Below, piece after piece: positions 14,475 through 15,750 of a DNA stretch of 64,000 nucleotides. How positions within the stretch are numbered: position 1 is the first letter of the stretch; every line of letters starts with the position of its first letter. The position numbers and the translations under genes were made by a program. The notes beneath the pieces are model-generated. The model was not told the origin of the DNA and did no database searches. It saw nothing but the letters and a program-made list of their open reading frames with translations. Source of the stretch: a virus (lineage: Duplodnaviria; Heunggongvirae; Uroviricota; Caudoviricetes); IMG/VR virus record IMGVR_UViG_2850773344_000009; one strand, given 5' to 3'.

Positions 14475-14781
14475 CAGAACAACAAAGCTGCCTGATAGTG
14501 GCCTTTATTTTTGGCATAAATAACAGAATAAACACTGCACTGTGTATTCATTCCAACGAGTGAATACACGGAGCAATGTCGCTCGTAACTAAACAGGAGC
14601 CGACTTGTTCTGATTATTGGAAATCTTCTTTGCCCTCCAATGTGAGGGCCTTTTTATATGCATACCAATAACGCTTCACTCGAGGCGTTTTCGTTATGCA
14701 ATCAAACAGAAGGAGCATCCTATGCAACAGTTCGCTATTGCAGGGGCGGCATCGGTTCGCCCTTTCGGTAATGACTCCAAC

Positions 14782-15285
14782 TTACTGATAGTGTTTTATG
14801 TTCAGATAATGCCCGATGACCTTGTCATGCAGCTCCACCGATTTTGAGAACGACAGTGACTTCCGTCCCAGCCTTGCCAGATGTTGTCTCAGATTCAGAT
14901 TATGTCGCTCAATGCGCTGAGTGTAACGCTTGCTGATAACGTGCAGCTTTCCCTTCAGGCGTGATTCATACAGCGGCCAGCCATCCGTCATCCATACCAC
15001 GACCTCAAAGGCCGACAGCAGGCTCAGAAGACGCTCCAGTGTGGCCAGAGTGCGTTCACCGAAGACGTGCGCCACAACCGTCCTCCGTATCCTGTCATAC
15101 GCGTAAAACAGCCAGCGCTGACGTGATTTAGCACCGACGTAGCCCCAATGTTCGTCCATTTCAGCGCAGACAATCACATCACTGCCCGGTTGTATGCGCG
15201 AGGTTACCGACTGCGGCCTGAGTTTTTTAAGTGACGTAAAACCGTGTTGAGGCCAACGCCCATAATGCGTGCACTGGCGCGACAT
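14782..15285 (-). CDS. insB: IS1 InsB
   Basis: 167-aa ORF recognised as IS1 InsB. Confidence 0.9.
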
Positions 15286-15479
15286 CCGACGCCATTCATG
15301 GCCATATCAATGATTTTCTGGTGCGTACCGGGCTGAGAGGCGGTGTAAGTGAACTGTAGTTGCCATGTTTTACGGCAATGAGAGCAGAGATAGCGCTGAT
15401 GTCCGGCAGTGCTTTTGCCGTTACGCACCACGCCTTCAGTAGCGGAGCAGGAAGGACATCTGATGGAAATGGAAGCCAC
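15204..15479 (-). CDS. insA: IS1 InsA
   Basis: 91-aa [46 protein letters not shown]... recognised as IS1 InsA. Confidence 0.9.
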
Positions 15480-15750
15480 GCAAGCACCTTAAAATCACCA
15501 TCATACACTAAATCAGTAAGTTGGCAGCATTACCCGCCCTTTCAACCCGATTTTATCGGTACAGCATTCACGAAAAAATATTTTAACCGGAGCAGACTTT
15601 AAACAACCAAGAATGAAAAGTTTGCTCGAAAAGCTTTGGGATATTTTGAAACAACAAGGCCGTCCATGAGTTTTACAGATAACTGGTCAGACGAAGAATT
15701 CATTCGTCAGATGAACAAAATGCTCAATCAGCACAAAGAACAGGAGAAAG

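Follow-up and report, generated by a model that had tools for sequence, protein, structure and literature searches.

The 64-kb stretch of DNA analyzed here (64,000 nucleotides, hereafter the window) belongs to the chromosome of Shigella flexneri 5a M90T (CP037923.1, the accession of the M90T chromosome; PMC7132871). Read in the direction of pL transcription, the early region of its lambdoid prophage comprises oL/pL operators, a nutL boxB, N, sieB (on the opposite strand), ral, a terminator, a cIII-like gene, a 35-aa ORF, a 102-aa ORF and recT (coordinates in Table 1). The cIII-like gene thus lies where cIII would be expected, i.e., after N, ral and a terminator and before the recombination genes, in a phage also encoding CII, as in lambda; the cII homologue (PF05269) is found on the rightward side of the prophage. 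The hairpin of the tL1-like terminator has a counterpart in phage mEpX1, where it is annotated as a rho-independent terminator. On the other side of the cIII-like gene, the acidic 35-aa ORF occupies the position that kil has relative to lambda cIII, and its translation is probably coupled to that of the cIII-like gene.

An intact IS1 within the cIII-like gene

The cIII-like gene is interrupted by an IS1, the only copy detected by a script scan of the window. The left end of the element is GGTAATGACTCCAACTTACTGAT and its right end the reverse complement of GGTAATGCTGCCAACTTACTGAT, with terminal inverted repeats matching at 20 of 23 positions. On both sides it is bordered by CGCCCTTTC, a perfect 9-bp repeat with no base of extension in either direction (two specified 9-mers match by chance with a probability of 4^-9, or ~4e-6). 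All hallmarks of the reference IS1 (IS1 family, Escherichia/Shigella) are present, i.e., the same 768-bp length, imperfect inverted repeats of ~23 bp, insA/insB′, an A6C site and a 9-bp duplication, without any difference in the present element, which is one more copy at a new site. Over all 768 bp, it is 100% identical to copies from the S. flexneri virulence plasmid (pINV) and from a few E. coli genomes. As judged from its sequence, the insB frame would be expressed as InsAB′ via a -1 frameshift at the A6C motif, and with its reading frames intact this copy is presumably capable of transposition.

Table 1. Features of the cIII-like locus and of the other IS elements and control sites considered, in window coordinates.
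Feature	Position	Strand	Remarks
IS3-family orfA	434-736		ubiquitous
IS4	10072-11497	+	1426 bp, canonical ends; transposase 10138-11484 (+)
nutR	boxA starting at 11556; boxB 11539-11525	-	lambda-identical
oL/pL operators	12968-13035		434-type
nutL boxB	13097-13111		lambda-identical
N gene	13222-13545	+	lambda-type, PF11438; same pL operon
tL1-like intrinsic terminator	14632-14649	+	GC-rich hairpin and T-run, from a terminator scan; directly 5′ of the cIII-like gene
Ribosome-binding site (AGGAG)	14711-14715	+	6 nt 5′ of the ATG; read directly from the sequence
cIII-like gene, 5′ fragment	14722-14766	+	codons 1-15 (MQQFAIAGAASVRPF); ATG at 14722
Target-site duplication, left copy	14758-14766	.	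CGCCCTTTC; codons 13-15 of the cIII-like gene
IS1	14767-15534	-	768 bp exactly; apparently intact; transposase genes antiparallel to pL transcription
insB frame	14782-15285	-	167-aa ORF; Pfam DDE_Tnp_IS1 1e-73
insA	15204-15479	-	91 aa; Pfam Zn_ribbon_InsA 6e-20, HTH_Tnp_IS1 5e-30
A6C frameshift motif	15228-15222	-	IS position 307
Target-site duplication, right copy	15535-15543	.	CGCCCTTTC
cIII-like gene, 3′ fragment	15544-15669	+	codons 16-56 and stop; contains the predicted amphipathic helix, residues 37-53
35-aa acidic ORF	15666-15773	+	MSFTDNWSDEEFIRQMNKMLNQHKEQEKDDDSDSE; ATG overlaps the cIII-like stop (ATGA); annotated as a gene in other assemblies
IS600/IS3-family DNA	~41415-43560		
IS3-family transposase	62772-63677		

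Reconstruction of the gene and its empty site

Downstream of the start codon and the first 15 codons, the frame of the cIII-like gene reads 26 codons of IS1 and terminates at 14847, for a total of 41 aa. Expression of the 3′ fragment as a fusion initiated inside IS1 was also considered and rejected, since the frame has a TAA at 15517 and lacks any ATG, GTG or TTG ahead of Met38. The interrupted gene is accordingly a null allele because the remaining 41 codons, among them all those aligned to the essential helix of lambda CIII, are left without a ribosome-binding site or start codon. With the coupling to cIII that the ATGA overlap suggests, the 35-aa ORF would now be translated less as well.

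In silico excision of IS1 and one copy of the repeat joins 14722-14766 to 15544-15669 and yields a gene of 56 codons with its stop at 15667-15669, whose product is MQQFAIAGAASVRPFNPILSVQHSRKNILTGADFKQPRMKSLLEKLWDILKQQGRP. Among phage records, 24 match the 424-bp site reconstructed in this way with a coverage of at least 80%. Five of them (E212, mEpX1, HK140, Gally and PDP110P1) align with it as a single ungapped piece at 98.8-99.3% identity, and mEpX1 differs from it by four mismatches and no indels, with a single CGCCCTTTC. This is a clean, simple insertion, and there is no adjacent deletion. More than 30 lambdoid phages of E. coli and Salmonella without the IS (HK542, mEpX1, HK140 and SPN9CC among them) encode a product 100% identical to the 56-aa protein, and this exact protein occurs on at least 1000 contigs, under the NCBI name “MULTISPECIES: hypothetical protein [Enterobacteriaceae]”. 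In mEpX1 (gp36), HK542, HK140 and SPN9CC, the intact “putative cIII” is identical to the reconstruction at the amino acid level and 99% identical at the DNA level, and has the same flanks (the terminator upstream, the 102-aa ORF and recT downstream), but these alleles are uninterrupted.

The initial annotation, which proposed a comparison with IS-free relatives, had described an exact 768-bp IS1 between two copies of CGCCCTTTC, in an ORF starting at 14722 behind an aggag ribosome-binding site, broken after codon 15 and restored to 56 codons by removal of the IS and one duplicate. Each of these points is borne out: codon 15 ends at 14766, the excision gives the stated length, and the empty site exists as 99% identical DNA with one copy of the 9-mer.

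The start of this gene is placed differently in several records. The RefSeq/GenBank CDS of mEpX1 gp36 (L001 3018-3293) is 91 aa long, uses an upstream start and spans the annotated rho-independent terminator, and many 91-aa database entries likewise begin at an upstream TTG or ATG (14617 in the window). The start at the AGGAG-preceded ATG, giving 56 aa, is more plausible than this upstream start.

Distribution of the insertion

The same junctions were recovered from S. flexneri 5 strain 8401 (CP000266.1), from an NCTC assembly (UGYR01000001.1) and from a 103-kb contig of JGI metagenome 3300001148, all with junction-spanning ORFs. Across window positions 14600-15800 (1201 bp), a single SNP, at 14867 within IS1, distinguishes these three copies from M90T. 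In addition, the same junction is seen in a partial protein of 67 aa encoded in three S. flexneri drafts, on contigs that end inside IS1. An exact-match scan for the left junction in a genome collection with one genome per species returned no hit, and no identical junction was found among complete E. coli genomes (a set without Shigella). The 76-aa version of the fusion ORF, which starts at a TTG, is only found in CP037923.1, at 2.93 Mb, and is listed by NCBI as EKN05_015290.

Since the M90T genome holds 109 near-identical IS1 copies, a classic source of misassembly, we considered whether a repeat had been misplaced in the long-read M90T assembly. However, four independent assemblies have identical junctions, junction-spanning ORFs are present in three more drafts, and a perfect 9-bp duplication flanks the element. 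The shared junctions and the duplication effectively refute an assembly artefact, to which we assign a practically negligible probability and which we rejected. The insertion is real and inherited, and is a lineage marker of M90T, 8401 and related serotype 5 strains.

The SNP at 14867 is a C/A difference in the insB frame, at which the M90T version exactly matches the IS1 copies of S. flexneri plasmids; it could stem from gene conversion between IS1 copies or from a polishing difference.

In public annotations the junction ORFs (14617-14847, 14722-14847 and 15360-15602) bear wrong names, namely “hypothetical protein EKN05_015290” (M90T), “putative alpha-mannosidase” (NCTC) and “FMN/FAD transporter, partial” (drafts), and an 80-aa junction-spanning ORF is called as a gene in 8401; none of them flags a cIII pseudogene. 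Our literature search returned nothing specific describing the M90T/8401 prophage, and the M90T genome paper (PMC7132871) mentions neither prophages nor cIII. IS1, the intact gene (as “putative cIII” in mEpX1) and the host genomes are all already known and published, and the sole unrecorded detail is that the public annotations fail to identify the fragments as a cIII::IS1 pseudogene.

Independent IS1 insertions were also observed in prophages of E. coli CE20 (NZ_CM188248.1) and SW07164 (NZ_CM129849.1), at the equivalent of window ~14531-14545. These lie in the ral-cIII spacer, ~220 bp upstream of the M90T site and in the same orientation as the M90T copy. The CE20 element has its own 9-bp duplication (TGCACTGTG), and the left flank of the SW07164 element is lost. 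Such insertions may reflect a local target preference of IS1 or a search bias.

Relationship of the 56-aa protein to CIII

Standard profile searches did not link the reconstructed protein to CIII: neither Pfam (including PF02061, Lambda_CIII) nor NCBIfam returned any family at E ≤ 1. A tblastn search of phages with the 56-aa protein did not reach the cIII genes of lambda, HK022 or P22 even at E ≤ 10, and BLASTP against lambda CIII gave an E-value of 0.025 and required a 12-residue gap. Among database relatives of the 56-aa protein, 0 of 46 carry PF02061 and 45 of 46 are named hypothetical, in contrast to relatives of lambda CIII (77 of 78 with PF02061).

More sensitive comparisons point to a remote relationship. 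PHROG 550 (“CIII”) matches the whole 56-aa protein with an E-value of 1e-22, a match that is possibly partly circular if the family already includes such sequences. When an alignment of 20 members of the 56-aa family was compared to 28 lambda/HK022-type CIII proteins with hhalign, the probability was 94.7% (E = 5.6e-8), and 90.9% in a rerun (score 32.4), with scores of 32-40 across runs vs. 10.3 for the reversed alignment and 5.3-17.8 for 20 column-shuffled alignments. The motifs aligned are an N-terminal MQxxAIAG and a C-terminal (K/R)LxDILxQxGxP. CIII proteins typically have conserved residues at the N-terminus, glycines among them (Kobiler et al., PMC1838920), and lambda CIII residues 14-37 are both essential and sufficient for activity (PMC1838920). 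Within the latter region, the C-terminal half aligns (KRLIDIL with EKLWDIL) and the center does not; IS1 lies upstream of all the residues aligning with it.

The AlphaFold model of the 56-aa protein is of low confidence (pLDDT 64), but includes a predicted helix at residues 37-53, for which the modeled confidence is higher (mean pLDDT ~84 across residues 41-50). This predicted C-terminal helix is amphipathic, with a muH of 0.67 that only 0.9% of shuffles attain (0.90 for lambda). Broadly, the 56-aa protein shares with lambda and HK022 CIII (PF02061, “protease FtsH-inhibitory lysogeny factor CIII”) a small size (54-56 aa), a location in an N-dependent pL operon, the MQ-x-AIAG and LxDILxQxGxP motifs and a predicted amphipathic helix. 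It differs from them by ~22 extra residues between the N-terminal motif and the helix, and from lambda CIII by a weaker helix that is ~11 residues shorter, ITRKLRDGWKR having no clear counterpart. A search of the literature found no experimental report on the 56-aa family.

The initial annotation had called the gene cIII-like and proposed an alignment of the reconstructed ORF to CIII proteins. This label survives the refutation named in that annotation (no similarity of the reconstructed ORF to cIII family proteins), but as a remote homology, based on PHROG 550, hhalign (91-95% probability) and the position in the pL operon, and does not extend to a match with PF02061 or NCBIfam. A different reading would keep the IS1 insertion and take the 56-aa ORF as a small pL-operon protein, unrelated or functionally diverged, that has no more than short terminal motifs in common with CIII and does not function as CIII, so that no component of the lysis-lysogeny decision was struck. 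The failed Pfam, NCBIfam and tblastn searches, the marginal and gapped BLASTP hit, the lack of conservation in the core of the essential helix and the possible circularity of the PHROG match all favor this reading. They are set against a profile-profile score well over 22 negative controls, motifs at both termini that are conserved in bona fide CIII proteins, the same gene size and operon position behind an N-dependent terminator, the cII homologue in the same prophage and the amphipathic character of the predicted C-terminal helix. On balance, we hold a non-CIII function to be the weaker reading, although one with an appreciable chance of being right, and propose that the 56-aa protein, whose gene occupies the cIII position, is a distant CIII relative with a short helix, for which FtsH inhibition is plausible.

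IS elements and decay of the prophage region

IS1 is one of several IS elements in the window (Table 1). A full-length IS4 is flanked by a 13-bp duplication, TACACCATAGGTG (10059-10071 and 11498-11510), and its excision in silico restores the order 434-type cro, lambda boxA, boxB, lambda tR1-region sequence and cII. This IS4 lies downstream of nutR and upstream of cII, i.e., in the tR1 region, between cro/nutR and cII-O-P-Q, so that N-modified polymerase might still read through it. The placement of an IS4 in tR1 by the initial annotation was therefore correct, the element being full-length, with its 13-bp duplication, just after nutR and before cII. The implication that the cIII-like insertion is a notable second strike on the lysis-lysogeny circuit is not supported, as the IS density of the window is close to the M90T average. 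With 109 IS1 copies and 296 IS elements (and 640 pseudogenes) on the M90T chromosome (PMC7132871), ~1.5 IS1 and ~4.1 IS elements are expected per 64 kb, and the window holds at least five of the latter. Beyond window position 41414, where IS600/IS3-family DNA begins, the counterpart of SfV coordinates 1-1872 (terS and most of terL) is absent. The late region is dead because the terminase is lost, and the region as a whole is predicted to be unable to yield phage whatever the state of cIII.

Overall, we consider it highly probable that the locus results from simple transposition, in which an intact IS1 entered a cIII-like gene of 56 codons at codons 13-15. The gene belongs to the pL operon of a lambdoid prophage of S. 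flexneri serotype 5, and we see its interruption as a step in the IS-driven decay of an already defective region, which has IS3-family elements at either end. The staggered 9-bp cut and its repair created the CGCCCTTTC duplication, and the fusion of the start codon and 15 codons to 26 IS1 codons leaves a 41-aa product and a null allele. By analogy with lambda, the intact protein would, on infection, shield CII from the FtsH protease and thereby raise the frequency of lysogeny. CIII acts only while lysogeny is being established, and pL is repressed in a lysogen. Because pL is repressed and cIII dispensable in an established lysogen, loss of the cIII-like gene would be neutral to the host and was presumably fixed by drift. 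IS1 would also probably lower pL expression downstream (35-aa ORF, recT, xis and int) through rho-dependent polarity, unless N antitermination, which classically overrides IS polarity, does so here.

Classical polar IS mutants of the 1970s offer a precedent, with IS1 inserted in cII in lambda r14 and IS2 upstream of cII-O in lambda r32. Like these, the M90T allele places an IS within a gene or terminator region that controls the lysis-lysogeny decision of a lambdoid genome, and inactivation combined with N-relievable polarity would be expected. However, r14 and r32 are laboratory phage mutants, whereas cIII-like::IS1 became fixed naturally, in an already defective prophage on a chromosome.

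Alternatively, both the pL-operon IS1 and the tR1 IS4 may have been selected, either to disarm or lock the prophage beside the gtrV serotype-conversion cassette, or to remove a bacteriostatic FtsH inhibitor and impose a polar block on the kil-like gene, xis and int upon transient derepression. In favor of this, both IS positions would block delayed-early transcripts, the insertion is conserved among several serotype 5 genomes, and over-expressed CIII is bacteriostatic (PMC1838920). Against it, IS elements are about as dense here as in the genome on average (PMC7132871), and common descent alone predicts the sharing of the insertion among close strains. Loss of cIII alone would prevent neither induction nor excision, N antitermination classically overrides IS polarity, and the loss of the terminase already kills the late region. 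Taken together, this makes selection quite unlikely in our view, and neutral loss through simple transposition remains the preferred explanation. It is tempting to go further and to see in the 56-aa family a third class of CIII-type FtsH inhibitors with a structure of its own (a long linker and short helix, missed by Pfam and NCBIfam and “hypothetical” on thousands of contigs), whose inactivation, together with the tR1 IS4, was selected in serotype 5 S. flexneri and immobilized the gtrV prophage block; we regard this combined proposal as a long shot.

As a case of IS-driven pseudogenization in Shigella, cIII-like::IS1 is one such locus, absent from public annotation as a cIII pseudogene. One more IS1-made prophage pseudogene is routine and matters little by itself, although it is usable as a lineage marker. 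Enterobacterial lambdoid phages very commonly carry the intact 56-aa gene, which is named “hypothetical” because curated CIII models fall short. If these models were extended after a functional test, many annotations would be mended; gene fragments are mislabeled in public records too.

Phage types in the surrounding region

The early and lysis region of the prophage (801-22450) is HK542/mEpX2-like and lambdoid, with 434-type cI, cro and operators, lambda N and nut sites, and recT. This region is not SfV-like, SfV itself being without N or cIII. The late region and gtr genes (22652-41414) are SfV/SfI/SfII-like. A lambdoid early region next to an SfV-like late region represents either a mosaic or two juxtaposed prophages.

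At the transition, 262 bp separate int (21230-22390) from the gtrA-gtrB-gtrV genes that come next (window 21230-25184 for the whole set). Homology to SfV is unbroken across 21924-37460, which includes tail genes, gtrV, gtrB, gtrA, the attP region and the 3′ end of int. In a prophage integrated through attP, int and gtrA are expected at opposite ends, and the int-gtrA arrangement seen here corresponds to the unrecombined (virion or attP) gene order. No tRNA gene was found in the 64-kb window. It is possible that this order arose from tandem lysogens at one att site or from an IS-mediated re-insertion.

Further along, a P22-like structural block occupies 43635-57154 (minus strand), with portal, coat, gp10, ejection proteins and terminase, and is 95-97% identical to E. 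coli prophages. This block is what is left of a third phage type in the window. On the strand opposite to the P22-like block, a phage lysozyme gene is found at 61212-61745, which suggests an inversion.
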